Source of the DNA: Anaerolineales bacterium UBA4826
Lineage (GTDB): Bacteria > Chloroflexota > Anaerolineae > UBA4142
Length of the DNA: 64,000 bases
Direction of reading: 5' to 3'
NCBI GenBank assembly: GCA_002400365.1
Contig: DHFK01000087.1
Coordinates: 9,635 to 73,634 of the forward strand
Both the position numbers and the translations under genes were made by a program. Position 1 is the first letter of the stretch, and the number at the start of each line of letters is the position of its first letter. The notes under the pieces are model-generated. The model ran no database searches and was not told the origin of the DNA. It was given only the letters and a program-made list of their open reading frames with translations. Of this stretch, positions 2,439-45,946 are shown piece after piece.

Positions 2439-2540
2439 TTGGAGATTGGAGATTGGAGATCGGAAGTTGGAGGTTAGAGGTTGGAAGTTGGACGGATGAT
2501 CCCAGTCCTCCAACATCTAACGTCCAACCGCTAACTTCTA
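2439..2540. repeat. tandem-heptamer hairpin (TTGGAGA/TTGGAAG units x8, with an inverted partial array)
   Basis: Eight consecutive 7-mers at 2439-2494 (TTGGAGA x3, TCGGAAG, TTGGAGG, TTAGAGG, TTGGAAG, TTGGACG). Complementary CTCCAAC/ATCTAAC/GTCCAAC/CGCTAAC units follow at 2508-2540. It fills the gap-pgk intergenic space. Confidence 0.85.
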
Positions 2541-6839: not shown

Positions 6840-6869
6840 ACCTGGAAGGCGCTCAAGCACCTTCCAGGT
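6840..6869 (-). terminator. hairpin terminator candidate (ACCTGGAAGG / CCTTCCAGGT)
   Basis: Perfect 10-bp inverted repeat with a 10-nt loop, just downstream of the 6876 stop on the minus strand. A moderately T-rich tract follows. Confidence 0.45.
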
Positions 6870-9129: not shown

Positions 9130-9134
9130 CCGAC

Positions 9135-9215
9135 TTTCGATTGCCGATCCTTCGGCAAGCGCAGGACAGGTTTTTCGATTTTCGATTGGGGCGCGCCAGA
9201 AATCGGCAATCGAAA
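9135..9215. repeat. TTTCGAT-unit repeat/hairpin between the kinase and regulator genes
   Basis: TTTCGATTGCCGAT (9135-9148) is the perfect reverse complement of ATCGGCAATCGAAA (9202-9215). An internal TTTTCGATTTTCGATT tandem lies at 9172-9187. Confidence 0.8.
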
Positions 9216-9231
9216 ATCGAACATCGAGAAT

Positions 9232-10808: not shown

Positions 10809-10837
10809 ACCTTCCGGGTTTCCAAAACCTGGAAGGT
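10809..10837 (+). terminator. hairpin terminator candidate (ACCTTCCGGGTTT / AAACCTGGAAGGT)
   Basis: 13-bp imperfect inverted repeat immediately after the CPBP stop, followed by a T-rich tract. Confidence 0.45.
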
Positions 10838-10979: not shown

Positions 10980-10991
10980 ACAGCGAAGGCA

Positions 10992-11068
10992 GAAGGATGA
11001 AGGATGAAGGATGACAAACAGCGCGCTGCGATCAGTTTTCATCCTTCATCCCTCATCCCTCATCCTTT
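10992..11068. repeat. tandem-heptamer hairpin (GAAGGAT x3 / ATCCYTC x4)
   Basis: GAAGGAT x3 at 10992-11012. Complementary ATCCTTC, ATCCCTC, ATCCCTC and ATCCTTT units at 11041-11068. It lies between tRNA-Leu and tig. Confidence 0.9.
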
Positions 11069-11101
11069 TGATCCATAGTCCAAGAGAGGGAAACTAACCA
11101 C

Positions 11102-12565
11102 GTGAAAGTTACCACGGAACGCACCCCGAATTGCAACGCCGTCGTCACCGTCGAGGTGGACGACGACCAAGTCCAACGCGCGTTAAAGAACGCGGCAGTG
11201 CGCGTCTCGCGCATCCGCCCGATCCCCGGCTTTCGCCCCGGCAAGGCGCCGTACGCACGCGTCGAACGCGCGGTAGGCAAGGACCTCTTGCTCGACGAAG
11301 CGATTGACGAACTGGCGCAATCGCTCTACAAGCAAGTTCTGAAAGACGCAAACATCGAACCCTACGACGCCGGCAGCGTCGAGGTCGTGCAAAAGCAGCC
11401 GGTCATCTTAAAGTTCACGGTCCCCACGCGCCCGGTCGTCACGCTGGGCGACTATCGCTCCATCTACATTCAGCCCGAGCCGGTCGAAGTGAGCGCTGCG
11501 GAGGTGAATCAGGTCATCGAGCGCTGGCGCACGGAGCAAGCCACACTCGTGCCAGTCACGCGACCTGTGCAGCTGGGCGATCGCATTACCATCAATGTCA
11601 AAGGTGGGATCGAAAACCAGACGCAGATAGACCGCGAGAGCATGGAAGTGCAGATGGAGCCGGAGAAATTGCTCTTTCCCTGGTTGGAGCAACTCGTCGG
11701 CGCGAACGCCAACACGCCGCTCTCGATTACCTACACCTACCCAGCGGATGCGGCGGCGCCGGTCGCCGGCAAGACGGCGACGTACGCCGTGACCGTCACG
11801 GAAATCAAAGAGACCCAGTTGCCGGAACTCGACGACGCGTTCGCCCAGTCCATCAGCGCGTTCGAAACGCTCGACCAGTTGAAAAGGCGCGTCCGCGCGA
11901 ATCTGCTGGCGGAAAAGCAAGACGCGGAAAACAATCGCTATGCCGACCAGGTGGTGGACGCCGTGGTGGCGCAAGCGCAGATCGAGTACCCCGATTCCAT
12001 GATCGAAGACGAGCTCAACGTCGAGGTCGAGCAATCGAAAGACCTTGCCAAGCGGCTGAGTCTGACCTGGCAAAAGTACCTGGAATTGGCAAAGCAGGAC
12101 GAGAGCACGTATCGTGAAGCCAGCCGCCCGCGCGCGGAAAAGCGGCTCAAGCGCTTGCTGGCGCTGATGCAGGTCGCCGAAGCGGAAAAACTCGCGGTCA
12201 CCGCCAAGGACGTGGACGTGGAAATTGATCTGCGCGCGCAGCAAGACGCGCGCGCCGGCGGGAGCGCGGAGCAAACGCGCCGCGCGCTGGCGACGTCCGA
12301 TTCCCGGCGCGACATCGAGTTTACGCTCAGACTGCGCAAGGCGATCGCCTTTTTGGTCGCTTCCGCCAAGGGCGAGCCGACGAGCGGAAAGATCGTGACG
12401 CCAGACATGGTGCTCGCCGAACGCCGCGCCCGCGCGCAAGCCGCCGCGGCGGCAACCGCCGAGACCGGCGTATCGCCCAGCGGCTTGATCACCGATCCGT
12501 CTCAAGTGCGCGCGGAGGATTGGCCCCGCGGGCTGGACCATCCGCTGCTGCCAGGACAAGAGTAA
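11102..12565 (+). CDS. tig: trigger factor
   Basis: 487 aa. The N-terminal ribosome-binding region carries GFRPGKAP, the signature trigger-factor motif. Usual tig-clpP-clpX synteny. GTG start. Confidence 0.93.
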   Translation: MKVTTERTPNCNAVVTVEVDDDQVQRALKNAAVRVSRIRPIPGFRPGKAPYARVERAVGKDLLLDEAIDELAQSLYKQVLKDANIEPYDAGSVEVVQKQPVILKFTVPTRPVVTLGDYRSIYIQPEPVEVSAAEVNQVIERWRTEQATLVPVTRPVQLGDRITINVKGGIENQTQIDRESMEVQMEPEKLLFPWLEQLVGANANTPLSITYTYPADAAAPVAGKTATYAVTVTEIKETQLPELDDAFAQSISAFETLDQLKRRVRANLLAEKQDAENNRYADQVVDAVVAQAQIEYPDSMIEDELNVEVEQSKDLAKRLSLTWQKYLELAKQDESTYREASRPRAEKRLKRLLALMQVAEAEKLAVTAKDVDVEIDLRAQQDARAGGSAEQTRRALATSDSRRDIEFTLRLRKAIAFLVASAKGEPTSGKIVTPDMVLAERRARAQAAAAATAETGVSPSGLITDPSQVRAEDWPRGLDHPLLPGQE

Positions 12566-12644
12566 TTTCAGATTTCAGATTTATGCTTTAAGATTTGGCG
12601 CGCCCTCAAGTGGACGTGGAAATCATAAATCTGAAATCTGAAAT
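12565..12644. repeat. tandem-octamer hairpin (ATTTCAGATTTCAGATTTATG and its perfect complement)
   Basis: Perfect 21-bp inverted repeat, 12565-12585 versus 12624-12644, each arm made of TTCAGATT-type units. It lies between tig and clpP. Confidence 0.9.
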
Positions 12645-12663
12645 TTAGCAGGAGTCTCAAAGA

Positions 12664-14592: not shown

Positions 14593-14625
14593 AGAAACCA
14601 GGGCGCCTGCAGAAACCTGGTTTCT
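14593..14625. repeat. AGAAACCAGG / CCTGGTTTCT hairpin (GAAACC-family palindrome)
   Basis: Perfect 10-bp inverted repeat with a 13-nt loop between clpX and the AAA+ gene. No T-run follows it. Confidence 0.7.
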
Positions 14626-20036: not shown

Positions 20037-20156
20037 CGTCTTGACAATGTTGGATTAGCCACAGAGCGCACAGAGGACGCAGAGAAAAATCTGTTCTTTC
20101 CTCTGTGTTCTCTGTGTCCTCTGTGGCGGAAAGGAAAATGTAACATTGTCAAGACG
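20037..20156. repeat. 120-nt compound hairpin: 15-bp outer stem plus CACAGAG-unit inner arms
   Basis: CGTCTTGACAATGTT (20037-20051) is the perfect complement of AACATTGTCAAGACG (20142-20156). The inner arms are CCACAGAG CGCACAGAG GACGCAGAG versus CTCTGTGTT CTCTGTGTC CTCTGTGG. Confidence 0.9.
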
Positions 20157-21734: not shown

Positions 21735-22223
21735 ATGACCCTCTCGCATCTCGACGAACAAGGGCGCGCGCAGATGGTGGACATCAGCGCAAAAGCCGAT
21801 ACCGAACGCGTCGCCATCGCCAAGTGCCAGGTGACGATGCAAGCCGCGACGCTCGCGCTCATCCGCGCCGGCAAGATCGAAAAAGGCGAGGTGTTCGCGG
21901 TCGCGCGCGTCGCGGGAATCATGGCGGCAAAGCGGACGCACGAACTCATTCCGCTGTGTCATCCGCTGCTCGTCACCGATGTCGCGGTTGACTTTGAAAT
22001 TTTGTCCGCCGGCGACGCGCACGCACGCGCGCGCGTCGGCATCACTGGCACGGCGAAAAACGTCGGCAAGACCGGCGTCGAGATGGAAGCGCTCGTCGCG
22101 GTGACGACCGCCGCCCTCACGATCTACGACATGGCGAAAGCAGTGGACCGCGCGATGCGTATCGAGAATGTGCGTTTGGTGTTGAAACGTGGGGGCAAGT
22201 CGGGGGAGATTCAGTTGGAGTGA
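21735..22223 (+). CDS. moaC: cyclic pyranopterin monophosphate synthase MoaC
   Basis: 162 aa. Typical MoaC sequence ([42 protein letters not shown]). Confidence 0.93.
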
Positions 22224-22494: not shown

Positions 22495-22979
22495 TTCTCT
22501 ACTACCTCGATGCCAGCGCATGGGTCAAGCGCTATTACCGAGAAGCGGGAACAGATTGGGTGCAGAGTTTGTTTTCGCAGAATTCCATGATAGCTTGCGC
22601 ATCCCTGGGTCTAGTGGAAGTAACAGCGACCTTGTCGCGGAAGCGAAAAGCGGGAGAGATTCCAGCCGAACTCTTCGAGCAGAAATCGCAGGAACTCGAA
22701 GAGGATTGGAATCGCCTGATCCAAGTTCAATTCACCGCCGAGGCAGTAGACGCGGCGAGAAAGTCAGCAAGAGAACTTGCGCTCCGCGGAGCCGATGCCA
22801 TTCATCTCGCATCAGCCGTTTTGCTGAGGGGGCGGCTTGCGGAAGGCGATCAGCTGATGCTTGCCACCTCTGATAGTGAACTGAAGAAGGCGGCTCAAGC
22901 ATCTGGTTTCGCTGTGATTGACCCCGGCGAACAAGACGCGCAGTCTGCTCACAATCTACGATATGGCGAACACGGTTGA
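22491..22979 (+). CDS. vapC: PIN-domain ribonuclease toxin (VapC-like)
   Basis: Acidic PIN residues in the expected order (YLDASA, LVEV, GADAIHLA, TSDSEL). The last ~10 codons read out of frame through a moaC-derived remnant. Confidence 0.82.
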   Translation: MILYYLDASAWVKRYYREAGTDWVQSLFSQNSMIACASLGLVEVTATLSRKRKAGEIPAELFEQKSQELEEDWNRLIQVQFTAEAVDAARKSARELALRGADAIHLASAVLLRGRLAEGDQLMLATSDSELKKAAQASGFAVIDPGEQDAQSAHNLRYGEHG

Positions 22980-23055
22980 CCGCGCGATGCGTATCGAGAA
23001 TGTGCGGTTGGTGTTAAAGCGCGGGGGCACGTTGGGAGAAACCAGACTGGAGTAA
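22948..23055 (+). pseudogene. orphan duplicate of the moaC 3-prime end (last 35 codons plus stop)
   Basis: It aligns without gaps to 22116-22223, with 87 of 108 identical by hand count and a 29-nt perfect core. It translates to [35 protein letters not shown], versus [35 protein letters not shown] in moaC. Confidence 0.85.
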
Positions 23056-25940: not shown

Positions 25941-26717
25941 ATGGAGAAGGACCTGTCACCCTGGCACCGTATCATTATGGATTTGCAAGACCTCGAAACC
26001 GCGCTCGGCGTCACATTCAAAGACAAATCGCTGTTGACGCGCGCGCTCACGCATCGCTCGTACCTCAACGAGAATCCCGATTTGCCGTACCTCGACAACG
26101 AACGGCTGGAATTTCTCGGCGATGCGATTTTGGATTTTGTCGCCGCCGAGTTTTTGTACCAGCGCTTTCCTGAGATGAGCGAAGGCGATCTCACGTCCCT
26201 GCGCGCCGCGCTCGTCAAGGGCGAAACGCTCGCGCGCTTTGCGGCTGAAACTGGCATGCCGCCGCACCTCTTGATGTCGCGCGGCGAAGAAGCCGCGGGT
26301 GGACGCGAGCGCGCGACCCTGCTCGCCGGCGCGGTCGAAGCGCTCATCGGCGCGCTGTACCTTGACCAGGGACTCGACGCCGCGCGGGCATGGATTCTGC
26401 GCTTGCTCCCCAGCGAGGCGGAGCGCGTGCACCATCAGCGGCTCGACCGCGATGCCAAAAGCATGTTGCAGGAACTGAGCCAGGGCAAGTTGCAGGTGAC
26501 CCCACTCTATCGCCTCGTCGAAACGCGCGGACCCGACCACGCGAAAGAGTTCACCATTCAAGTGGTCATCCAGGAGCGCGTGTACGGACAAGGGACCGGA
26601 CGCAGCAAACAGATCGCGGAGCAAGAAGCCGCGCGGGTTGCCTTGGAAGCGTTACAGCAAGAAATCTCGCAAGCAGATCACGCGGCGTTGATCGCCCTAA
26701 AGGGCCAAGTCGAATAG
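25941..26717 (+). CDS. rnc: ribonuclease III (start uncertain: ATG at 25941 or 25977)
   Basis: RNase III signature NERLEFLGDAIL and a C-terminal dsRBD. The ATG at 25941 lies inside a GGTGACA/TGTCACC hairpin (25935-25960), which is preceded by GGTGACG-type units at 25919-25934. Confidence 0.9.
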   Translation: MEKDLSPWHRIIMDLQDLETALGVTFKDKSLLTRALTHRSYLNENPDLPYLDNERLEFLGDAILDFVAAEFLYQRFPEMSEGDLTSLRAALVKGETLARFAAETGMPPHLLMSRGEEAAGGRERATLLAGAVEALIGALYLDQGLDAARAWILRLLPSEAERVHHQRLDRDAKSMLQELSQGKLQVTPLYRLVETRGPDHAKEFTIQVVIQERVYGQGTGRSKQIAEQEAARVALEALQQEISQADHAALIALKGQVE

Positions 26718-26800
26718 TCGCGTAGTCGCATGGTCAGATAGTCAAACCGACTACGACTATACGACGACTCGACTATCCGACTAAAGACTATGCGACTATT
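26713..26800. repeat. TAGTCG-unit hairpin spanning the rnc stop and the next gene's start codon
   Basis: Left arm AATAGTCGCGTAGTCGCATGGTCAGATAGTC (26713-26743). Right arm GACTACGACTATACGACGACTCGACTATCCGACTAAAGACTATGCGACTATT (26749-26800). The ATG at 26790 is inside the right arm. Confidence 0.8.
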
Positions 26801-27674
26801 GGTTACCGGCGGCAGCGGCTATTTGGGCGCGGCGATCCTAAAGCGCGCGCCTCAAGACTGGGAACTCGCGGCAACGTATTACGCGCATCCACTCGCGCAG
26901 AGCCACGTTGCCGCGTTTCGCGTTGACGTGCGCGATGCGGACGCGGTCAGCCGTCTCTTCTCCACATTTCGTCCCGCGGTCGTGATTCACACCGCCGCGG
27001 CGATGTCCGGCGAGGCGATGCTGGCGACCAACGCGGCGGGCACGCGGAACGTCGCGCGCGCAGCGGCAGACATACGCGCGCGGCTCATCCATCTGTCGTC
27101 CGACGTGATCTTTGACGGCGAGCACGCGCCGTACGACGAGAGCGCGCCGCCGCATCCGCTCACGCCGTACGCCGAATCAAAAGCGCGCGCGGAACGCGCC
27201 GTCATCGAAAAGTATCCGGCGGCGGCGATCGTGCGTACCTCGCTCATTTACGGGTTCGATCCGCTCGACCCGCGCACGCGGCAAACGCTCGCTGGCGAAT
27301 TCCCGCGCCTGTTCACCGACGAGTACCGCTGTCCGGTTTTCGTGGACGACCTCGCGGACGCGCTGATCGAACTGGCGGGACAGAAACCCGTTTTCTCTGC
27401 CCCTCCGCTACGCTCCGGGGTGCTTTGCAAGAAAACGGGTTTCTCCGTGCTGAATCTCGCGGGAGCGCAGCGCGTGAGCCGCTACGAATTCGGCGTCAAA
27501 CTCGCGCGCGCGTTTGGCGTGCCGCCGCGGTTTGAACCCGCGCTCACCGCGTCGTATCCCACGCCCCGCCCGCGCGACTGCACACTCGACGTTTCGCTCG
27601 CGCAAAAGATCCTGCGGACGCGACTGCGCGGGGTGGACCAAGTTCTCGCGGAGGTCAAACGACCAAGCGAATGA
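26790..27674 (+). CDS. RmlD-like SDR (dTDP-4-dehydrorhamnose reductase family) with an internal palindromic-element insert
   Basis: TGGSGYLG Rossmann motif and YAESK catalytic motif. About 21 extra residues (QKPVFSAPPLRSGVLCKKTGFS) coincide with the repeat at 27382-27444. Confidence 0.8.
   Translation: MRLLVTGGSGYLGAAILKRAPQDWELAATYYAHPLAQSHVAAFRVDVRDADAVSRLFSTFRPAVVIHTAAAMSGEAMLATNAAGTRNVARAAADIRARLIHLSSDVIFDGEHAPYDESAPPHPLTPYAESKARAERAVIEKYPAAAIVRTSLIYGFDPLDPRTRQTLAGEFPRLFTDEYRCPVFVDDLADALIELAGQKPVFSAPPLRSGVLCKKTGFSVLNLAGAQRVSRYEFGVKLARAFGVPPRFEPALTASYPTPRPRDCTLDVSLAQKILRTRLRGVDQVLAEVKRPSE
27382..27444. repeat. GAAACCCGTTTTC palindromic element, copy A (inside a CDS, in frame)
   Basis: AGAAACCCGTTTTC (27382-27395) and GAAAACGGGTTTCT (27431-27444). 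Both arms are identical to those of the copies at 33091-33150 and 52518-52581. Confidence 0.9.
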
Positions 27675-27696
27675 AAGTAATTCGCCTATTCGTTTT

Positions 27697-27725
27697 TTGA
27701 TTCGTTGCCGTTCCTGTTGTATACT
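27697..27725 (+). promoter_or_regulatory. promoter candidate TTGATT-17-TATACT upstream of smc
   Basis: TTGATT 27697-27702, 17-nt spacer, TATACT 27720-27725. It is embedded in ATTCG-unit repeats. The smc ATG is at 27771. Confidence 0.45.
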
Positions 27726-27770
27726 ACATCTGCAATTCAATCCTTGCGTTTCACGTTTACGTTTTGATCC

Positions 27771-30407
27771 ATGCATCTCAAACACCTCGACCTGCACGGC
27801 TTTAAGACATTCGCCAATCGCACCAATTTCGTGTTCGACCTCGGCGTAACCGCGATCGTGGGTCCGAATGGCTCGGGCAAGAGCAACATCGCGGACGCCG
27901 TGCGTTGGGTGATGGGCGAGCAATCCTACAGCGAACTGCGCGTAAAAAAGACCGAAGACCTGATCTTTACCGGCAGCGCGACGCGCCCACGGATGGGCAT
28001 GACCGAAGTTTCGATGATGCTGGAGAATCCGAATCCGTGGACGGAGGCCGCCGCAGACGCGGAGCGCACCGGGGATACAGAGAAAACAAAACTCGACCCC
28101 GTGACCGAGTTGCTTCGCTCGAATCCATCCGAGGTGACGATCGGTCGCCGCGCGTACCGCGACGGCGGCAACGAGTACTTTCTCAACGGCGCGCGCGTGC
28201 GCCTGCGCGACATCTTCGAACTCCTCGCGCGCTGGGGCTTGGCGCGCAACACTTACGCCGTCGTCGGGCAGGGCTTGATTGACCAGGCGCTCTCGCTCCG
28301 TCCCGAAGAACGCCGTGCGCTGTTCGAAGAAGCCGCCGGCATCGGTCTCTATCAATCCAAGCGTCAGAACGCGATGGAGAAACTGGAAGAGACCAAGCAG
28401 AATCTCCTGCGCGTCAACGACATCATCAACGAAATCTCGCCGCGCCTACCCGCGCTGGCGCGCCAAGCCGAACGCGCGCGCAATTACGGCAGCGTCGTCA
28501 ACACGCTCGACGAGAAACTGCGCTTGTGGTACGCGTTTCAGTGGGCGCGCGCCCAGCAAGCCGCGCAAGAGACCGCCGCGCGCGAACACGCCGCGCGCGC
28601 CACATTGAACGCGCGGCGCGCGGGGGTGCAGGACCTCGCCGCCCGGCTCGCGCAGTGGCGGCGGCAGGGCCAGGAACTGCGCCAGCAACTTGCGCAAGCG
28701 CGCCACGCGCGGACGCAACTGGAACAGCAGCACGCGACCCACACGCGCGAACTCGCCGTCCTAGAAGAACGCCTGCGCTTGACGACGCAACAGCGCGATG
28801 AAGCCGCCGCCGAAATCGCGGCGCTCGCAGAATCGCAACGCGCGCAAGAACGACACATTGAGCAAGCGGCGAACCAAAGACAAGGGAAAGAGCAAGAACG
28901 GGACGGCGTGGCAGAGCGTCTGAGCAGGAGCGAAAAGGAACTGCGGGAATTGGAACACCGCGCCGCGCACGCCGAGGCGATGCTGGAGGAGAGCGCGCCA
29001 GAGATCCGCGGACTCGCCAAGCAACTCGCGTCGCTGCGTTCGGAATTCGGCATCTACGAAGAGGGCTTGCGCGCGGCCGCCGCGCTCAGCGTCCAAGCCG
29101 ACGCGCTCACCTCCTTTGAATACAAGCGCGCGCAAGCCGAACGCGCGGTCGAAACCGCGCGCGGTCAACTGACCGAGTTGCGCGCCGCGCTCGCGATCGC
29201 CGAACGCGATGTCGCCGGCGCGCGCGCGGAGGAACAGTCGGCGCGCACCGCGCTTGCCCAGTGGAACGCGCAGGTCGCCGCGCGCGCGCGCCGCGTCGAG
29301 TCGTTCACACGCCAGGTCGAAACCTTGACCGCGCAGCGCGATCAGTTGCGAACGCGCGCGGAGGCATCTGCCCGCGCGCTCGCGGAAAACGATCAGAGCA
29401 TCGCACCTGCCGAGACAAAACTGGCGGACGCGGAAAAAGCGCAGATAGATTTGGAGGAGCAGGAGACCGTAGAGCGCGCGCGGCTGGCGGAATTCGAGGA
29501 CGCGCACAATCGCGCGGTGCTGGACGCGGAACGCAGTCGCGCCGAGATCGCGCGGCTCGAAACCGAAATCGAAGACGACCTCGCCTCAGGTCGGATCGTA
29601 TCCGAAATTGTCGTAGACCCCGCTCGCCGCAGCGGGGACGAAAACGGCAACGGGCGCGAGACGGCGATCGTTCTCAACGCCGACCTGCCTACTCAACTGC
29701 GCTTGCAGTTGGGCGACGAAGTGGTCGCGCTGCCGGTCGTGACCGCCGCGCCCGAAGGACTCGAAAAAGAGATTCGCAAATTACGCAACCAGTTAAAGTA
29801 CATGGGCTCGGTGAATCCGAACGCGCCGCAGGAATTCGATGAGTTGAAAGCGCGCCATCAGTTTCTTACCGAGCAAGCCGCCGACGCGCAGCACGCGATC
29901 GAGAAATTGAACGTGGCGATCGCCGAACTCGACGAGATCATGCGGCGAAAATTCCAAGAGACGTTCAAAGCGATCAACGTCGAATTCACCAAGTTCTTTG
30001 CGATCCTATTCGACGGCGGGACGGCGCGCCTGGAACTGACGAATCCCGAAGACCTCACGCAAACCGGGATTGACGTGATCGCCAAGCCGCCGGGCAAGCG
30101 CGCCGCGCACCTCGCCATGCTTTCCGGCGGCGAGCGCGCGCTCACCGCGACCGCGCTGTTGTTCGCGATCCTCAAGGTCTCGCCGACGCCGTTCTGCGTG
30201 TTGGACGAGGTGGACGCGATGCTCGACGAGGCGAACGTCGGGCGCTTTCGCGACGCGCTCAAGACGCTGACCGCCGGCACGCAGTTCATCGTCATCACGC
30301 ACAATCGCACGACGATGGAAAGCGCGGACGCGGTCTATGGCATCACGATGAACGAGGATGGCGTATCGCAAGCGATTTCGTTGCGGTTGGAGTCAACGAA
30401 TGGGTAA
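27771..30407 (+). CDS. smc: SMC-family chromosome segregation ATPase, short form without a recognisable hinge
   Basis: N-terminal head FKTFANRT...[14 protein letters not shown]-terminal head [17 protein letters not shown]...[16 protein letters not shown]...THNRTTME. The ~490 aa between the heads is uninterrupted Ala/Arg/Glu/Gln-rich coiled-coil-like sequence. Confidence 0.85.
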
Positions 30408-30466
30408 CGAATAGACGAATAGTTCCCGCCCATTCGTTCATTCGTTTATTCGTTGGTGATTCGTTG
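30394..30466. repeat. ACGAATAG-unit hairpin overlapping the smc stop
   Basis: CAACGAATGGGTAACGAATAGACGAATAG (30394-30422) versus CATTCGTTCATTCGTTTATTCGTTGGTGATTCGTTG (30431-30466). Confidence 0.8.
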
Positions 30467-30483
30467 AGGTAGTTTTCCAACCA

Positions 30484-31485
30484 ATGCCCATCATCCAAGC
30501 CGAGAACCTCTCCAAAGTTTTCCGGATTCCCCACAAAGACCCTGGCGTCGCCGGCGCGTTCAAAGCGGTCTTGCGCCCACGCTTTGAAGACAAGGTTGCC
30601 GTCAACGGAATCAGTTTCAGCGTCGAGCCGGGCGAAATCGTCGGCTATATCGGCGTGAACGGCGCGGGCAAATCCACGACGATCAAAATGCTCACGGGCA
30701 TTCTCATGCCAACGCGCGGCAACGTTCAGGTGCTAGGTCGCGACCCGCATCGCCAGCGCGTTGCCAACGCGCGCGACATCGGCGTCGTGTTCGGTCAGCG
30801 TTCGCAGTTGTGGTGGGACCTCGCGTTCATCGAATCGCTCAATCTCGTCGCCAAGATTTACGAAGTGCCGCCGGCGCGCTACAAACAACTCCTCGACCAA
30901 TTCGCCGAAACGCTCGAACTCGGGGAACTGCTGCGCGTGCCGATTCGCAACATGTCGCTCGGGCAAAAGATGCGCGCGGAACTCGCCGCGACGCTCATTC
31001 ACGCGCCGCGCATCGTCTACCTCGACGAGCCAACCATCGGGCTTGACCTCATCGTGAAAGAGCGCATTCGCGAATTCATCAAACAACAGAACCGCGCGGC
31101 TGGAACGACGGTGATCCTCACGACGCACGACCTGGGCGACATCGAAGAGTTGTGTCCGCGCGTCATCATCATTGACGCCGGCGCGCTGATTTACGACGGA
31201 CCGATCAGCACGATCAAAGCGCGCTTTGGCAAGTATCGCGAGATCACGTTCGAGACGCTGGGCGACGCCAGCGCGTGCGCCGTTCCGCCCGGCGCAGAGA
31301 TCGTCGGCGCGGAACCGCGCAAACTCACCCTGCGCTTCGACCGCACGCTCACGACGGCGAGCCAGGTCGCGCAGGCGGTAATGAACGCAATCGAAGTCAA
31401 AGACTTTTCGCTCGCCGAGCCGGACCTCGCGTCGGTCATCAAGCAGATTTACGGCGGCGCGCTGCGCGAGCCGGTGACGCCATGA
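30484..31485 (+). CDS. ABC transporter ATP-binding protein (ABC-2 exporter type)
   Basis: Walker A GVNGAGKST, signature LSLGQKMR, Walker B IVYLDEPT. Confidence 0.9.
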   Translation: MPIIQAENLSKVFRIPHKDPGVAGAFKAVLRPRFEDKVAVNGISFSVEPGEIVGYIGVNGAGKSTTIKMLTGILMPTRGNVQVLGRDPHRQRVANARDIGVVFGQRSQLWWDLAFIESLNLVAKIYEVPPARYKQLLDQFAETLELGELLRVPIRNMSLGQKMRAELAATLIHAPRIVYLDEPTIGLDLIVKERIREFIKQQNRAAGTTVILTTHDLGDIEELCPRVIIIDAGALIYDGPISTIKARFGKYREITFETLGDASACAVPPGAEIVGAEPRKLTLRFDRTLTTASQVAQAVMNAIEVKDFSLAEPDLASVIKQIYGGALREPVTP

Positions 31486-32294
31486 TGCAAGCGCTGCGCC
31501 GCCGAATCAAAGTGTACGGCGCGTTCGCCGCAATGGCGCCGAAAGACTATTTTGCGTACACCGCCTGGGTGTGGGTGGAATTCATCGCGCAATTCCTGAC
31601 GATGACGATCTTTGTCCACTTTTGGCGCGCGGTCTACGCCAACACCAGCACCCTCAACGGCCTGAACCTCCCACAGACGCTGAATTACATCATGCTCGCC
31701 CAAGTCCTCGCGCCGCTCGTGCAGACGCGCACCATTTTTCAATTTGGCTTTTTGATTCAAAATGGTCAGATGGCGATCGAACTTTTGCGCCCGGTGGATT
31801 TTCAAGCGCGCGTCCTGGTAGATACCCTCGGCTGGCTCGGCATGTACGCGCTGCTAAAAACTCCCCTGCTCCTCATCGCCGTGATTCTCTTTGGCTTGCA
31901 ATTGCCGACCAGCCCGGCGGTGTGGCTCGCGTTCGGAATTTTGCTCGTCCTCGGTCGCGCGGTCGTGTTCTATTTCGATTGGATCTTTGCCTGCCTCGCG
32001 TTTTACACCACCGAGACCTGGGGGCTTTCCGTCGTCCGGGTCGGCGTGGCGACGTTCTTCAGCGGCATCCTTATTCCTATCGCGATGATGCCGGGTTGGC
32101 TGCAACAACTCGCCGGCGCGATGCCGTTCGCGCAAGCCATTTATGTTCCGACGTCGCTCCTCAGCGGGATTGCGAGTCTCGCCGACGCGCCGCGCGTGCT
32201 GCTAATTCAACTCGGCTGGCTGATCGCGTTGGCGATTCTCTCGCGCGCGGTTTTCAACGTCGCCATTCGCAAAGTGACCGTACAAGGCGGCTGA
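31482..32294 (+). CDS. ABC-2 family transporter permease
   Basis: ATGATG overlap with the ATPase stop. Six hydrophobic segments. The longer ORF-track start at 31275 overlaps the ATPase gene. Confidence 0.7.
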   Translation: MMQALRRRIKVYGAFAAMAPKDYFAYTAWVWVEFIAQFLTMTIFVHFWRAVYANTSTLNGLNLPQTLNYIMLAQVLAPLVQTRTIFQFGFLIQNGQMAIELLRPVDFQARVLVDTLGWLGMYALLKTPLLLIAVILFGLQLPTSPAVWLAFGILLVLGRAVVFYFDWIFACLAFYTTETWGLSVVRVGVATFFSGILIPIAMMPGWLQQLAGAMPFAQAIYVPTSLLSGIASLADAPRVLLIQLGWLIALAILSRAVFNVAIRKVTVQGG

Positions 32295-32297
32295 CCG

Positions 32298-33086
32298 ATG
32301 CGACGCTACCTCACGCTGTATTGGTACTTTCTCCTGCAGCGTTTCAAAATCCTGCTGGAGTATCGCGCCAACTTTATGATTGGCGCGTCGTCCACGATCA
32401 TCTTGCAGATCGCCGGGCTGCTGACGATTTGGGTCGTGATGGGACAGATACCCGATCTGAACGGCTGGGGCTTTGATGAAGTCCTGCTCGTGTATGGACT
32501 CATCACGCTGGCAAAATCCATCAACCACATGTTCGCCGACAACCTGTGGACGATCGGTTGGAGTTACGTTCGGAGCGGACAATTCGACCGCTTTCTCGTT
32601 CGCCCGATTGACCCACTCTTTCATCTGCTCGCCGACCGCTTTTGTCACGATGGCATCGGGAATTTTCTCGTCGGCGCAGCGCTCGTCGCGAAATCCACCG
32701 CGTCGCTTGGGATCGCTTGGACGCCTTTCAACGCGCTGTACCTGGCTGTCGCGGTTCTCAGCGGCGGCGCGATTTTTATCGCGCTGAATCTCATCACGGC
32801 AACCAGCGTCTTCTGGATCACCGAATCCATTCCGGTGACGCAAGTCATTTTCAACACGCACGAATTCGCGCAATACCCGCTCACGATTTACCATCGCGGC
32901 ATCCAAATTCTGCTGACGTGGGTGCTGCCGTACGGCTTGGCGTCGTTCTATCCCGCGAGTTTTCTGCTCGGGCGCGAGGTTGGCGCGCTGGCGTGGCTGT
33001 CGCCGGTGGTTGCGCTGGCTTTGCTGGTGATTGCATTTCGCGTTTGGCTGTTTGGTTTGAGGCATTACTCCGGCACGGGATCGTAA
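32298..33086 (+). CDS. ABC-2 family transporter permease (second subunit)
   Basis: 262 aa, multi-TM, starting 3 nt after the previous stop. Confidence 0.7.
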   Translation: MRRYLTLYWYFLLQRFKILLEYRANFMIGASSTIILQIAGLLTIWVVMGQIPDLNGWGFDEVLLVYGLITLAKSINHMFADNLWTIGWSYVRSGQFDRFLVRPIDPLFHLLADRFCHDGIGNFLVGAALVAKSTASLGIAWTPFNALYLAVAVLSGGAIFIALNLITATSVFWITESIPVTQVIFNTHEFAQYPLTIYHRGIQILLTWVLPYGLASFYPASFLLGREVGALAWLSPVVALALLVIAFRVWLFGLRHYSGTGS

Positions 33087-33090
33087 ATCA

Positions 33091-33150
33091 AGAAACCCGT
33101 TTTCCCAAGCCCCCGAAGCGAAGCGGAGTAGGGTCGAGAAAACGGGTTTC
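33091..33150. repeat. GAAACCCGTTTTC palindromic element, copy B (intergenic)
   Basis: AGAAACCCGTTTTC (33091-33104) and GAAAACGGGTTTC (33138-33150), with a different loop from copies A and C. Confidence 0.9.
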
Positions 33151-33168
33151 GGTGAAGGGCTATTGACG

Positions 33169-34020
33169 ATGGCTCTCCTGCGACGCTTGCAGGGCTACTG
33201 GTTGATGATTCACCCGTTTCCCGTGATGATGGTTATCACGTTCGCGGCGATTCTCGCGATCGTCACCGCGCGCGACGCGCTTGATCTGTCACGACTCGTC
33301 CGCACGGTCGCCGCGCTGTTCTTCTCCCAAGTCGTCGTCGGCATATCAAATGACTATCACGACCGTCTGCTCGACGCGCAGGGGCAGCCGTGGAAGCCGC
33401 TGGCACGCGGCATCGTCACGCCAAACGAAGCGCGCGCGTTGATCGCGCTCGCGTTCGTGCTGATGCTTGCGTGCGCGGTTTTGTTGGGACCGATTGCGCT
33501 GTCGTTCGTGCTGCTCGGTACGCTTGCCGGGCAGATCTACAATTTCCGGCTGCGCGGCACGCCGTTTAGTTGGCTCCCGTACGTTCTCGGCTTTATCATT
33601 CTGCCGATTTTCGTCGGGGTCGCAATGGAACGATTCGACGCGCGGCAACTCGCGCTCGTGCCGATCGGCTTGCCGTTGCTCTTCGCCGTTCACCTCGCGC
33701 AAACACTCCCCGATCTTGAGACCGATCGCGTGCTCGGCGTGCGTGGCGTGGCAGTAACGCTCGGGCATACCCGCGGCGTCACGGCGATGTGGCGCGCGTG
33801 GGCAGGCGCGCAAGCACTTGCGCTCGCGAGCGCGGCGCTTTTGGGCTTGGACCTGGGATTTGTCCTGATAGCAACGGGCATATCGCTCGCACTTGAAGTC
33901 GCAAGCATTGTGATGTATCATCATGGCGCAACGTCGTCAACACTGCGCGTCATTTTTCGATTGATCGCGGCGAGCGCAGTGATTCTGGTTGCAGGTTGGC
34001 TGCTCGGATTAAAATCGTAG
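33169..34020 (+). CDS. UbiA-family prenyltransferase
   Basis: NDYHDRLLD first Asp-rich motif and 8-9 TM segments. ATG at 33169, with an alternative TTG at 33163. Confidence 0.8.
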   Translation: MALLRRLQGYWLMIHPFPVMMVITFAAILAIVTARDALDLSRLVRTVAALFFSQVVVGISNDYHDRLLDAQGQPWKPLARGIVTPNEARALIALAFVLMLACAVLLGPIALSFVLLGTLAGQIYNFRLRGTPFSWLPYVLGFIILPIFVGVAMERFDARQLALVPIGLPLLFAVHLAQTLPDLETDRVLGVRGVAVTLGHTRGVTAMWRAWAGAQALALASAALLGLDLGFVLIATGISLALEVASIVMYHHGATSSTLRVIFRLIAASAVILVAGWLLGLKS

Positions 34021-34925: not shown

Positions 34926-34939
34926 CATTGACGATGGCT

Positions 34940-34999
34940 GATTTTCGATTTTCGATTGACCCCAACAGGAAATCGAAAATCAGAAATCGAAAACCGAAA
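34940..34999. repeat. TTTCGAT-unit hairpin
   Basis: GATTTTCGATTTTCGATT (34940-34957) versus AATCGAAAATCAGAAATCGAAAACCGAAAA (34971-35000). Same unit family as 9135-9215. Confidence 0.85.
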
Positions 35000-36112
35000 A
35001 TGAGTTTTGACGAACTGCTCTTCCAACTGGATAGCGCCGCATCGCTCAGCGCGAAAAAGCGCATGGTGCGCGAGTTCGCCGCGCGCCAGCCCTCCCCGAT
35101 CGTCGAGGATAACAGCGTCACGTTTTTCTATGTGAGCGAGGACGCCCGCGACGTCGCGTTGGAAGGCGATTGGACCCACTGGCAGCCGACCGCGCCGATG
35201 ACGTATTTGCCGGACACGCCGCTCTGGTATCGCGTCGAGCGATTTCCGCGCGAGGCGCGGCTGGAGTATCGGATCGTCGTCAACGGCACCCGCCGCCTCC
35301 TCGATCCCGGCAACCCGCGCACCGCGCCCAGCGGCTTTGGACTGCACTCTGAACTCGCCATGCCCGATTACCACGCGCCGCGCGAAGTGAGCGACCAGGG
35401 ACGCATCGCGCGCGGCGCGGTCGAGCAGCATTGGATGACCAGCAAGGCGCTGAACGATCGGCGCACGTTCTGGGTCTGGCTGCCGCCGCATTTCAACGCG
35501 CAGAAACCCCACCCGGTCGCGTACTTTAACGACGGCGGCGATTACTTGCGCCTCGCCGATCTGCCGCGCCTCCTGGACTATCTGGTCGAATGGGGTCGCA
35601 TCCCGCCGCTCATCGCCGTGCTCGCGAAACCGAACGATCGGGTCAAGGAGTACGCGCGCAACAACCAGTACGTGCGCTTTCTCGTGGACGAACTCGTGCC
35701 GTGGGTGGATGGCCTGTACCCGACGCGCGATGCGCCGGCGGCGCGCGCCATCATCGGCGCGTCGTACGGCGGATTGTGCGCCGCGCATGTAGCGCGCCGC
35801 CGCCCCAATGTCTTCGGCTTGGTCGGCGGACAATCGGGCTATTACAGTTACCAGAACGATGCGCTGCTGCGCGATTATGCGGCGGCGCAGAACCTCGGCA
35901 TCCGTTTCCACCTGGTCGTCGGCTCATTCGAAACCGATGCGCGCGGCAATGGCAAACCCGAAAGCGACTTGGTAGCGGCGCAGCGTCGCTTTGCGGAACT
36001 GTTACGCGGCAAAGGGTACGACGTGGCGTGCGCCGAGTATCCGGAGGGACATCAATGGGGATTTTGGCGCGCGCACGTCGGCGACGCGCTGAGATTTTTC
36101 TGGGGATGCTGA
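35000..36112 (+). CDS. esterase-D/enterochelin-esterase-like hydrolase with N-terminal Ig/CBM48-like domain
   Basis: GASYGG nucleophile elbow (GxSxG) and an N-terminal VTFFYVSEDARDVALEGDWTHW beta-sandwich-like region. ATG at 35000, with an alternative at 34934. The 34628 start is an artefact running through the dapA-like gene end. Confidence 0.72.
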   Translation: MSFDELLFQLDSAASLSAKKRMVREFAARQPSPIVEDNSVTFFYVSEDARDVALEGDWTHWQPTAPMTYLPDTPLWYRVERFPREARLEYRIVVNGTRRLLDPGNPRTAPSGFGLHSELAMPDYHAPREVSDQGRIARGAVEQHWMTSKALNDRRTFWVWLPPHFNAQKPHPVAYFNDGGDYLRLADLPRLLDYLVEWGRIPPLIAVLAKPNDRVKEYARNNQYVRFLVDELVPWVDGLYPTRDAPAARAIIGASYGGLCAAHVARRRPNVFGLVGGQSGYYSYQNDALLRDYAAAQNLGIRFHLVVGSFETDARGNGKPESDLVAAQRRFAELLRGKGYDVACAEYPEGHQWGFWRAHVGDALRFFWGC

Positions 36113-36182
36113 AGAACAGAGGAGACAGGAAAGATGAAAGATGAAAGATGAAAAACGACCCTCTCCTCTTTCATCTTTCTTC
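36111..36182. repeat. GAAAGAT-unit hairpin between convergent genes
   Basis: GGAAAGATGAAAGATGAAAGATGAAAA (36128-36154) versus CTCTCCTCTTTCATCTTTCTTC (36161-36182). A 13-nt perfect pairing is possible. Confidence 0.8.
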
Positions 36183-37531
36183 TATTTGAGCAACGCGGCA
36201 AGCACTGCATCGCTGACCAGTTGCGGGAACAAACCGAGGACGATAATCGCCGCGACGAGCAGCATCACCACGAACGTACACAGGTACGGCACAAGCTTCA
36301 ATTCGCCGTTTGATTCTAGCGCGCCAGCGCGTTCCGCCATGACACTCCAGACCATGCGCAACACTGCCACCACCACCAACCCGTTGGACGCCAGGAGCAG
36401 CGCGATAAATGCGATGTTCGATCGCGCGAGATCGCGGTAAATCGCATAGCCCGCAGCAAAGCCCAGCGCGGGCGGAAGGTTGGCGAGCGAGAAACCGCCA
36501 AAGAGGATGGCGAGCGCGCCCACGTTCTGCCAACGACGCTCTGGATGATGGCGCACGAAACTAATTCCCCCCGCGACGAGCGCAACGCCGGCGGCGCGGC
36601 TTAACGTCGCCAGCATCGCCCCGGCAAGCCCCAGGCGCGTGCCCAAGCCCAAACCGATCAACGCGTATCCCAGCGGGACGAGCGAAAGGTACGCCAGCAA
36701 GCGCCCTTCGCGCCGCTCCGCTACCGCGAGCAATGCGCCGACCGGGACTGTGATGGCGCCGCCCAAAAGCAAAATGCCGAGCAGCGGCGTTTTGTCAGTC
36801 AGCCAGAGCGCCGCGTCCAGTTGCCGCATGAGCAGCCACAACCCTACGGGCTGCGCCACGCCGACCAGGAACGCGATCCCCAGCAACGGCATCTCGTCGG
36901 CAAGCGGTCCCAGCCAGATACTGAGCGGCGCGACCGCGAGCAACAAGCCGAGACCCAGCGCCAAGAAAATCAGCGCGGCCCGGACCAGCTCGAGATTTTC
37001 CGGCGTGAGCGGATACAAATCCACGAAACGACTGGCGATGAGCAAACTCGCGCCCGCGACGACGATCAGCAAGAGGAATTGCCCCGCGCCGCCGACGCGG
37101 CCCTCGCGTTGGGGATGCGCCAGCAGCATCAGCACGACCAGGCCGATCGCCCAGAACAAGACGGCGAGCGGAAAACTATTCAGCGTGATCGCGACGACGA
37201 GCGGCGCGAGACTCCAGAAGAAGAACGCGCCCTGGGAATTGGCGATGACGGCGGAGGGCGCATTGCTGGCGCGTTCAAACGTCAAGGGCCCGAAGAATGC
37301 CAGCGCGGCGGTGATCGCGATCGCGGGCGCGAGAAACGCGCGCGCGGCGGCGTCGAGCGCGAGCGATCGCCCGAAGAAAAAGATGGGCGCGCCGGCAGCC
37401 GTCGCCAGAATCGCGGCGAGCGCTGTTGCGCCGGCGAGCGAGGCGACAAAAACCAGCCGCGGCCAGCGGCGCAGGACGCGGATCGCCACGCCGGTCGCCA
37501 GGCAGACCGCCGTCATCACGAGAATACTCAT
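36182..37531 (-). CDS. divergent NuoN/MnhD-like (Proton_antipo_M-like) polytopic membrane protein
   Basis: 449 aa, about 13 TM segments. LSIWLGPLADEMPLLGIAFLVG and GRLLAYLSLVPLGYALIGLG resemble the WLPxA..P.SA and KRLLAYSS..H.G blocks of antiporter-like subunits, with key residues changed. Confidence 0.45.
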   Translation of the reverse strand: MSILVMTAVCLATGVAIRVLRRWPRLVFVASLAGATALAAILATAAGAPIFFFGRSLALDAAARAFLAPAIAITAALAFFGPLTFERASNAPSAVIANSQGAFFFWSLAPLVVAITLNSFPLAVLFWAIGLVVLMLLAHPQREGRVGGAGQFLLLIVVAGASLLIASRFVDLYPLTPENLELVRAALIFLALGLGLLLAVAPLSIWLGPLADEMPLLGIAFLVGVAQPVGLWLLMRQLDAALWLTDKTPLLGILLLGGAITVPVGALLAVAERREGRLLAYLSLVPLGYALIGLGLGTRLGLAGAMLATLSRAAGVALVAGGISFVRHHPERRWQNVGALAILFGGFSLANLPPALGFAAGYAIYRDLARSNIAFIALLLASNGLVVVAVLRMVWSVMAERAGALESNGELKLVPYLCTFVVMLLVAAIIVLGLFPQLVSDAVLAALLK

Positions 37532-40812: not shown

Positions 40813-40841
40813 AGTATACAACAGAACAGATAAAACGTAAA
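40813..40841 (-). promoter_or_regulatory. promoter candidate TTTACG-17-TATACT, 6 nt from the ATG (leaderless)
   Basis: Minus strand: TTTACG (40841-40836), 17-nt spacer, TATACT (40818-40813), CCAGCC, then the ATG at 40806. The -35 hexamer is part of the ACGTAAA repeat. Confidence 0.45.
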
Positions 40842-40906
40842 ACGTAAAGATGCCATTACGTTCTGCGCGTTACGTTTTACGTTTTACGCTTTACGCTTTA
40901 CGTTTT
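40831..40906. repeat. ACGTAAA-unit hairpin in a divergent promoter region
   Basis: TAAAACGTAAAACGTAAAG (40831-40849) versus TTACGTTTTACGTTTTACGCTTTACGCTTTACGTTTT (40870-40906). Confidence 0.9.
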
Positions 40907-40925
40907 GCGCCCCGCGTGCTACAAT
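40897..40925 (+). promoter_or_regulatory. promoter candidate TTTACG-17-TACAAT, 6 nt from the folK ATG (leaderless)
   Basis: TTTACG 40897-40902, 17-nt spacer, TACAAT 40920-40925, GTCCCC, then the ATG at 40932. Confidence 0.45.
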
Positions 40926-43254: not shown

Positions 43255-43260
43255 CGTACT

Positions 43261-43326
43261 CTTTACGTTTTACGTTTTAGACGAGGTAAAGCGTAAATCG
43301 TAAAACGTAAATCGCAAAACGTAAAA
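43261..43326. repeat. ACGTAAA-unit hairpin within the btu-like operon
   Basis: CTTTACGTTTTACGTTTTA (43261-43279) versus TAAAGCGTAAATCGTAAAACGTAAATCGCAAAACGTAAAA (43287-43326). Confidence 0.85.
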
Positions 43327-44368: not shown

Positions 44369-44465
44369 GTATGTCATTGCGAGCCAGCATCTTTTGCCGG
44401 CGATGCAATCCCCACAGCACTCTGGGGATTGCTTCGCCGCTTCGGCGGCTCGCAATGACACATAC
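44369..44465. mobile_element. MITE-like palindromic element (GTCATTGCGAGCC family), short copy
   Basis: GTATGTCATTGCGAGCC (44369-44385) versus GGCTCGCAATGACACATAC (44447-44465). Inner GCAATCCCCA/TGGGGATTGC hairpin. It lies between the substrate-binding and permease genes. Confidence 0.65.
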
Positions 44466-45600: not shown

Positions 45601-45682
45601 CAAGTCGCGTGAGTCATCATCATCCTGCCCCCTTTCTCGCGAAGGTTGCGTCGGGTAAGCGCGATCAGATTGCATCGCGCTC

Positions 45683-45865
45683 TGACAGAGACAGGTTTTC
45701 TGGCTTGCTAGCAGATAACGTATGGCAGATGGCAGATGGCTATTGAGGTTTTTGCCATAAGCCATTTGCTCTTTGCTATCTGCTAGTCCACAGTTGCGGG
45801 ACAGCGTCGGCTTGACCGAACTTGCCCTGTTTGGCTCTCCCTTTCGGAAAGAGTCACCTCTGTCA
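45683..45865 (-). promoter_or_regulatory. cobalamin riboswitch aptamer
   Basis: The minus strand contains GGTGAC..TTCCGAAAGGGAG..AACAGGGCAAG..GGTCAAGCC..GCTGTCCCGCAACTGTGG, then the B12 box AAGCCAGAAAACCTGTC. P1 pairs TGACAGAG (45865-45858) with CTCTGTCA (45690-45683). It is upstream of btuFCD-like genes. Confidence 0.85.
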
Positions 45866-45946
45866 ATTCCTATTGCGTTGAAAATGTACGGATCGCTCAA
45901 CCATCCTCGCAAAGGCCCCAAACCTTCGCAAGGTTCTGGTTCGTGA

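Follow-up and report, generated by a model that had tools for sequence, protein, structure and literature searches.

A short hairpin repeat of Anaerolineae, found between genes and in frame within unrelated genes

Small dispersed repeats of about 20-30 nt in Nostoc and other cyanobacteria, reportedly described by Elhai and co-workers in 2008, are said to lie nested in other repeats and in hairpins, and the genomes that carry them are rich in tandem heptamer repeats. The best-documented cases of selfish DNA residing in frame within genes come from Rickettsia, whose genomes are reduced. According to PMC10969869, the palindromic elements of Rickettsia (RPE; Ogata et al. 2000) are dispersed repeats of about 100-150 bp reported from this genus only. 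Nearly half of them are genic and some are in frame in unrelated housekeeping genes, where they add a peptide, conserved in one reading frame, at a site that the protein fold can accommodate; the element itself contains no transposase. Another class of palindromic repeats, REP and REPIN, is mobilized by RAYT (Bertels and Rainey 2011, PMC3116915; Di Nocera et al. 2013, PMC3733652). Here we analyze a stretch of 64,000 nucleotides from Anaerolineales bacterium UBA4826 (GenBank assembly GCA_002400365.1, contig DHFK01000087.1, positions 9,635 to 73,634), hereafter the window, which contains three copies of a short hairpin with identical arms, one between genes and two in frame within unrelated genes. 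A previous reading made without database searches (hereafter the sequence-only reading) had noticed the three copies and likened them to the elements of Rickettsia. On balance, we think that a small mobile DNA element of the non-autonomous type gave rise to all three, a hairpin akin to REPIN and to miniature inverted-repeat transposable elements (MITE) and widespread in Anaerolineae.

The 13-nt arm GAAACCCGTTTTC and its exact reverse complement GAAAACGGGTTTC form three inverted pairs in the window, at the places given by the sequence-only reading (Table 1), and the six arms are identical, without a single mismatch. In copies 1 and 3, an outer A...T pair and an inner T...A pair extend the arms to a stem of 15 bp, and the right arm of copy 2 is followed by G, not T. 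The constant part of the element is a hairpin stem of 15 perfectly matched base pairs, in which A-GAAACCCGTTTTC-T pairs with A-GAAAACGGGTTTC-T; inspection of the arm sequence shows that a single arm is also partly self-complementary. Ten matches to the arm with at most two mismatches are found in the window, against 2.0 ± 1.5 in shuffled sequences, and none of 100 shuffles reaches 10. The predicted energy of the hairpins ranges from -24 to -33 kcal/mol (z = -3.1 to -5.1), that of copy 1 being -31.8 kcal/mol (z = -4.2). A scan of the window for every hairpin with a stem of 11 bp or longer revealed no further member of the family. The looser palindromes at 8-30, 6840-6869, 10809-10837 and 14593-14625, once proposed as relatives, belong to different hairpin families, with arms like ACCTTCCAGGT or GAAACCAGG. 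Contigs of three independent assemblies (NCBI GCA_002380735.1, JGI 3300014686 and Logan SRR1564103) match the window at about 99.8-99.96% identity, and the copies are unchanged in every one of these contigs that covers their position. Hence, they are not assembly artefacts.

An ABC-2 permease gene (stop at 33086) is separated by 82 nt from a UbiA gene (start at 33169), and copy 2 is located in this gap, beginning 5 nt past the stop and ending 18 nt ahead of the start. The reading frames are open through copies 1 and 3 (...LAGQKPVFSAPPLRSGVLCKKTGFSVLNLAG... and ...HSFRNPFSSSSGGTCIEKAQKTGFSDGLL...), as had been claimed, and the two copies encode QKPVFSAPPLRSGVLCKKTGFS and RNPFSSSSGGTCIEKAQKTGFS, respectively. 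Examples of predicted peptides spanning the inserts are PVFSAPPLR, SGVLCK, and NPFSSSSGGTCIEK. The proposal that both genes gain a similar peptide holds for the right arms, which give KTGFS in both, and fails for the left arms, which are read in different frames (QKPVFS versus RNPFS). The centers of the three copies, described as divergent, proved to be so only in part. Those of copies 1 and 2, once one is turned around, prove homologous (83% identity over 64 nt) and define a sub-family A that comprises, once oriented over 65 nt, 17 copies from at least 10 assemblies, these two included, with a mean column identity of 86%. Its consensus folds into the 15-bp stem plus a 4-bp inner stem, the inner sequence being conserved without covariation. 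The center of copy 3, assigned to sub-family B, does differ and has a relative, about 75% identical when aligned by eye, in the center of a copy from a groundwater metagenome-assembled genome (MAG; locus L012).

To describe the family beyond the window, we searched species-representative assemblies (596 Gb) for two exact 13-nt arms 20-50 nt apart. The pattern occurs at 69 loci in 28 assemblies, where fewer than 0.01 chance matches to the 26 specified bases are expected by calculation, and the idea that the element is dispersed in other genomes is thereby supported. Twenty of the assemblies are Chloroflexota, mostly labelled Anaerolineae and including Ca. Amarolinea, five are Microcystis (isolate genomes included), and one is a MAG of Poribacteria. 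The remaining two, one of Planctomycetota and one of Nibribacter, have a single copy each, possibly a chance terminator. Over the 75 copies used for the family statistics, the length of the element is 47-67 nt; the majority are intergenic and only about five are genic. Three genic copies outside the window are convincing (L024, L028, and L047). That of L028, within a glycerol kinase, is an 18-residue insertion relative to PDB 2d4w; from a reading of the translated open reading frames (ORFs), the host of L024 is putatively GT-C-like and that of L047 putatively a reductase like old yellow enzyme (OYE). Genic copies use all three reading frames (ETRFL...ENGFL, QKPVFS...KTGFS, and RNPFS...), and all six frames of the arms are free of stop codons. 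Lone unpaired arms are rare, 2 versus more than 65 pairs.

The genomes of Microcystis also display another layout, with hairpins composed of a B-arm, 5 nt, and an A-arm (L010 262-703, L015 4911-5139, L032 5317-5603, and L066 2900-3036), and the 13-mer also forms tandem arrays there, in which GAAACCCGTTTTC alternates with GAAATCAGTTTTC and the period is about 59 nt. The presence of the 13-mer in Microcystis may reflect either shared ancestry or convergence.

The host of copy 1 is a short-chain dehydrogenase/reductase (SDR) of 294 aa, and a Pfam match bears out its designation as RmlD-like. Around 70 of its 120 best homologs have an empty loop of six residues, QNDFxG, between LIELA and VLNIAG. 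The protein of the window reads GQKPVFSAPPLRSGVLCKKTGFS at this place, between helix 185-197 and strand 219-223. The view that RmlD proteins are normally contiguous here is hence not quite right, since the element replaces the codons of this loop. In other homologs among the 120, the same loop holds a short insert made of the arms only, a long one, or repeats of other types. We compared the DNA states of this site across syntenic FabF-RNase III-SDR loci. The site is empty in L071 and contains arms only in L075 (CAGAAACCCGTTTTCTCAGAGAAAACGGGTTTCTCG), in L072 with one compensatory pair change, and in L073 with three (GAAACCTGGTTTT / AAAACCAGGTTTC). The closest ortholog, L070 (75% aa identity), combines arms of the L073 type with the interior of the window, from which it differs at 1 of 33 nt. 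In L074, another long palindrome, GTCATTGCGAG...CTCGCAATGAC, occupies the site and only the right arm of the hairpin remains. Arms of the GAAACCTGG type are present at the orthologous site in other genomes.

All four combinations of arm type and presence of the interior are thus found at a single orthologous site, and the arm differences between lineages consist exclusively of fully compensatory pairs (one in L072, three in L070 and L073). Between the window and L070, three arm pairs have changed in this way around a nearly identical interior, and the surroundings of the element are only about 80% identical. This contrast points to conversion of the arms, independent acquisition of the interior, or quasi-palindrome correction, and is not explained by plain drift. 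The pairing of the stem is kept within the coding sequence even though the changes in the arms lead to amino-acid replacements (V to G, T to P).

The host of copy 3 is a multi-pass membrane protein of 456 aa without a Pfam match. Foldseek searches with its AlphaFold model (predicted local distance difference test, pLDDT, 93.2) retrieved AftB, ArnT, OST, ALG12, and Pmt4 with probability 1.0 and a template modelling (TM) score of about 0.5; hence the proposed GT-C-like label holds at the level of the fold. The insert lies in a short loop with helices 181-185 and 210-226 on either side, and among 92 GT-C orthologs it is present in the window protein alone. The closest orthologs (68-69% identity) read LTTR-PAAS/AAGN-RGWL where the window protein reads LTTR-DASV-HSFRNPFSSSSGGTCIEKAQKTGFS-DGLL. 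In both AlphaFold models the insert is a coil with pLDDT 52-64, flanked by confident secondary structure, in a protein with an overall pLDDT of 90-93 (for the SDR, 90.4 overall and 52-58 across the insert). Alignment with orthologs lacking the inserted peptide agrees, for both hosts, with the insertions that had been anticipated, and no repeat-free ortholog carries the peptide. By ortholog alignments and predicted structures, both genic copies are lineage-specific insertions into short surface loops, and the likeness to the in-gene behavior of RPE, in frame and in unrelated genes, stands.

Table 1. Position of the hairpin copies, their host genes, and other features in the window.
Feature	Position	Strand	Remarks
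Copy 1, sub-family A hairpin	27382-27444	+	stem AGAAACCCGTTTTCT / AGAAAACGGGTTTCT, 33-nt interior, in frame in SDR gene
Copy 1, arms	27383-27395 / 27431-27443		center 35 nt
Copy 1, module A core (CTCCGCTACGCTCCGGGG)	27403-27420	+	2 mismatches from widespread core CTCCGCTTCGCTTCGGGG
Copy 2, sub-family A hairpin	33091-33150	-	orientation opposite to copy 1, intergenic
Copy 2, arms	33092-33104 / 33138-33150		center 33 nt
Copy 2, exact module A core	33111-33128	-	
Copy 3, sub-family B hairpin	52518-52581		15-bp stem as copy 1, different 34-nt interior, in frame in GT-C-fold membrane protein gene
Copy 3, arms	52519-52531 / 52568-52580		center 36 nt
Host gene 1, RmlD-type SDR	26790-27674	+	Pfam RmlD_sub_bind 8e-41
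Host gene 2, membrane protein of GT-C glycosyltransferase fold	51775-53145	-	structure match
Second palindrome type	44373-44459		inner hairpin 44398-44439, between two minus-strand genes
Heptamer hairpin	2463-2535		
Heptamer hairpin	9131-9227		
Heptamer hairpin	10986-11070		
Heptamer hairpin	12564-12645		
Heptamer hairpin	20058-20127		
Heptamer hairpin	26708-26782		
Heptamer hairpin	30393-30467		
Heptamer hairpin	34932-35004		
Heptamer hairpin	36129-36183		
Heptamer hairpin	40831-40909		
Heptamer hairpin	43257-43326		
Heptamer hairpin	45708-45786		
Heptamer hairpin	54760-54860		
Cobalamin riboswitch	45673-45876	-	Rfam RF00174, 38.5 bits, E = 3e-6
Direct repeat, 89 nt	22116-22204 / 22948-23036		86.5% identical

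The palindromes are nested and modular. The core of sub-family A, CCCnCTCCGCTTCGCTTCGGGG (the module A core CTCCGCTTCGCTTCGGGG with CCCn ahead of it), is also dispersed independently as a mini-repeat, with exact matches in at least 120 metagenome contigs. In 80 loci that we fetched, the core stands within many different outer palindromes and beside tandem heptamers, and the GAAACCCGTTTTC arms are present at a single one of these loci. At L016 and L038, a unit of 18 nt, made of the 13-nt arm and a 5-nt linker, is repeated in tandem, both directly and inverted. In one MAG, the centers are 21-25 nt long (40 nt in one case) and are themselves hairpins with varying complementary stems. In the MAG JACQGS, the whole hairpin is nested in an outer inverted-repeat element of about 115 nt, GCAGGTTGTCGGAGA...TCTCTCCGACAGACTGC, present in 3-5 copies. 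These copies of the outer element (L008 115-228, L021 4004-4119, L037 666-781, L061 5378-5467, and L030 1257-1340) are 81-95% identical and are flanked by TA...TA, which looks like a duplication of the Tc1/IS630 type.

The flanks of the 75 copies follow the consensus S-A-(arm)-T ... A-(arm)-T-G. We found no target-site duplication, since direct repeats of 2-4 nt, at three offsets, occur in 0-5 of the 75 copies versus 0.3-4.7 expected by chance. A candidate "TC" duplication showed no association once the copies were oriented. The bases at -2 and +2 are complementary in 9 of the 75 copies, which is below chance. The flank logos lack the GTAG/CGTC tag, and the oriented flank is (T)CA, on one side only. 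The arm pattern is absent from IMG/VR, and phage and plasmid collections gave no match to the element. The arm or core sequences were found in none of the papers searched, and this literature has no description of elements of such a kind in Chloroflexi.

Other candidate explanations were set aside. The centers of 31-37 nt had suggested the capture of foreign DNA in the manner of spacers. This is not supported, as the arm pattern has no match in IMG/VR, the element has none among phages and plasmids, and the centers of copies 1 and 2 form a conserved family. An integron attC site or a dif-like site is not supported, the GTTRRRY core and a cassette array being both absent. A hammerhead-like CUGAUGAG is present in copy 3 only, the other copies lacking it, and was set aside as a coincidence. 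A structured RNA known to Rfam is not supported: at the gathering score copies 1-3 have no match, and the region 27200-33300 gives only two irrelevant chance hits at E <= 10. The indels that seem to distinguish L076, L077, and L079 from the window are stretches of N that stem from scaffolding. Finally, a count of compensatory versus single-sided arm changes over all loci is confounded, by arms within three mismatches of each other and by the tandem arrays of Microcystis.

Compared with RPE, the hairpin element is likewise found in frame in unrelated genes (copies 1 and 3, L024, L028, and L047) and, for copies 1 and 3, at surface positions compatible with the fold, modelled as coil by AlphaFold; it encodes no transposase. 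It differs by its length, 47-67 nt against about 100-150 bp, by having only the 15-bp stem constant, by being read in all three frames, by its low fraction of genic copies (about 5 of 75), and by its hosts, free-living bacteria of another phylum. By behavior and description, which is the extent of this comparison, it resembles RPE, but we do not class it as one. REPIN provide the closest anatomy, with two short inverted repeats that pair into a hairpin, a spacer that is less conserved, pairing that is maintained, a mostly extragenic location, no target-site duplication, and mosaic or nested arrangements. However, the hairpin element lacks GTAG/CGTC, its arms are shorter (13-15 nt), some of its copies are genic and in frame, and no RAYT gene was found beside any copy. 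With the tag missing and no RAYT seen near the copies, membership in REPIN is not established. Like the bacterial MITE (Nezha, Correia/NEMIS, ERIC), the element is short, non-coding, bounded by terminal inverted repeats, and present in multiple copies, and some MITE families also insert within genes and form in-frame fusions. Yet it lacks the duplication of the target site, its interiors are unrelated between many copies, and it is smaller than typical MITE (70-300 bp).

We know of no insertion sequence that shares its ends and could be its parent. By description, the module A core and the heptamer hairpins behave like the small dispersed repeats of cyanobacteria, within varied outer palindromes and heptamer arrays, though in another phylum, and we know of no counterpart of the 15-bp outer hairpin among the repeats described there. 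The hairpin repeat forms a family not described before within an already known kind of element, and it does not yet reveal a new mechanism.

If the element is indeed mobile, as we favor, an enzyme supplied in trans would copy it to new places. This enzyme would recognize the hairpin stem, probably on single-stranded DNA, and act without duplicating the target, in a way that would be closer to REP/REPIN-RAYT or to IS200/IS605-type mobilization than to that of cut-and-paste MITE. Existing hairpins would then become landing sites, or partners in short homology, for small palindromic modules, producing an onion-like nesting. Genic copies would be the survivors of selection, with in-frame lengths and in permissive surface loops, each adding 20-25 disordered residues. 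Because the arms are free of stops and the basic unit is 18 nt long, insertions of suitable length could be tolerated and fixed in such loops.

Several observations weigh against this account. No gene family recurs beside the copies, since an all-against-all clustering of 2345 ORFs from the 69 loci returned only generic families at variable distances. A tblastn search for an IS200-like TnpA, made with an approximate query sequence, gave no match with E < 1 in about 0.6 Mb of flanks, and there is no transposase among the Pfam-annotated genes of the window. At close range, we observed neither insertion polymorphism nor a precise empty site, the copies being fixed in contigs 99.9% identical to the window. 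One MAG has 14 copies with exact arms whose centers of 22-37 nt are all different and without evident similarity, unlike a typical MITE. Of 69 oriented copies, 53 have CA next to the stem on one side only, 7 on both sides, and 9 on neither, an asymmetry that the account does not explain. At the SDR site, the element substitutes for a six-codon loop and is not a simple addition. Finally, a neighbor-joining tree of the SDR orthologs mixes empty and occupied alleles, and therefore requires many independent events, recombination of alleles, or both.

Could the hairpins be selected cis-acting signals of RNA or DNA, such as structures that stabilize or process mRNA, RNase III sites, or sites for dimeric proteins, the genic copies being regulatory? 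Conservation is much stronger in the arms than in most interiors, the arms change by compensatory pairs, each of them is a partial palindrome like a dimer-binding site, and the copies are mostly intergenic, copy 2 standing just past a stop codon, where REP-like stabilizers lie. We nevertheless regard this as unlikely. The copies have no consistent orientation relative to transcription, copy 1 of sub-family A being sense and copy 2 antisense; the hairpin lacks a T-tract after it and a match in Rfam; the inner region is conserved in sequence, not through structural covariation; and copies reside within unrelated conserved enzymes whose orthologs do without them. It is similarly improbable that the palindromes were built or homogenized in place, in the absence of transposition, by template switching during replication, quasi-palindrome correction, or copying at short homologies. 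The same 65-nt sequence at unrelated loci of ten or more assemblies is impossible without a donor copy, and the loop that holds copy 3 has no starting hairpin in orthologs. Such processes would fit the perfectly compensatory arm differences around an almost unchanged interior, the four combinations of arms and interior at one orthologous site, and the direct and inverted tandems of 18-nt units. They may form a layer over transposition, but cannot account for the dispersal.

A further, rather doubtful idea is that of a palindrome system that nests within itself, in which the 18-nt arm-plus-linker and the module A core of about 23 nt would home into the loops or centers of existing hairpins, through an undescribed mechanism based on hairpin targeting or on short homology. 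This would explain why different palindromes re-occupy the same loop across lineages, why arms switch by compensatory sets while the interior is unchanged, and why constant arms surround unrelated interiors of 22-37 nt. If true, it would amount to a new mechanism of transposition or conversion and to a continuous remodelling of protein surface loops across the phylum. As for artefacts of assembly or sequencing, or chance palindromes, the data do come mostly from MAGs; we can practically dismiss them, given identical copies in independent JGI, NCBI, and Logan assemblies, the same arms in isolate genomes of Microcystis, an arm count above that of every shuffle, and inserted peptides in independently predicted orthologous proteins. 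We thus retain a transposed hairpin element as the most probable explanation.

These results extend a behavior like that of the Rickettsia elements to free-living, environmentally abundant Anaerolineae and to a much smaller element. The alignments of orthologs show that the same permissive loops of conserved enzymes have been invaded again and again, by several families of repeats. For annotation, this means that inserts give odd low-complexity peptides and variation in length in the proteomes of MAGs, and for protein evolution that hairpin inserts are a ready source of new surface loops. For the biology of mobile DNA, it adds a hairpin element without a duplication, a tag, or a known enzyme. 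We find the repeated occupation of orthologous loops, the compensatory sets of arm changes, and the nested palindromes particularly worthy of attention.

Other repeats are found in the orthologs of the two host proteins. The second palindrome type, GTCATTGCGAG...CTCGCAATGAC, which has a copy in the window outside the host genes (Table 1), is in frame in many orthologs of both, where it reads SLRA..RSNL..EIASS..PRND or LAMT. Further repeat-derived peptides (FQVSETWKV, PPTPLSKGG, SGAKHL...) are found at several other loops of these orthologs: in the SDR after residue 94 (P0034, P0083, P0092, P0111), after residue 141 (P0012, P0026, P0045, P0052), and after residue 142 (P0117, P0065, P0076), and in a loop of the GT-C protein (P0135, P0140, P0150, P0151, P0158, P0169). 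Given these additional loops, in-frame palindromic inserts look common in the proteomes of the clade.

The window has around 13 hairpins of yet another type, mostly between larger ORFs, in which one arm is made of tandem heptamers and the other of the complementary heptamers (Table 1). The heptamer is different at each site (e.g., GAAGGAT, TTTCAGA, TAAAACG, CACAGAG), and the hairpins resemble palindromic versions of the short tandemly repeated repetitive (STRR) arrays of cyanobacteria. The cobalamin riboswitch listed in Table 1 is upstream of Peripla_BP_2, FecCD, and ABC transporter genes. The direct repeat lies near the 3' ends of the MoaC and PIN-domain genes, and the PIN gene and a small ORF upstream of it look like a toxin-antitoxin pair.

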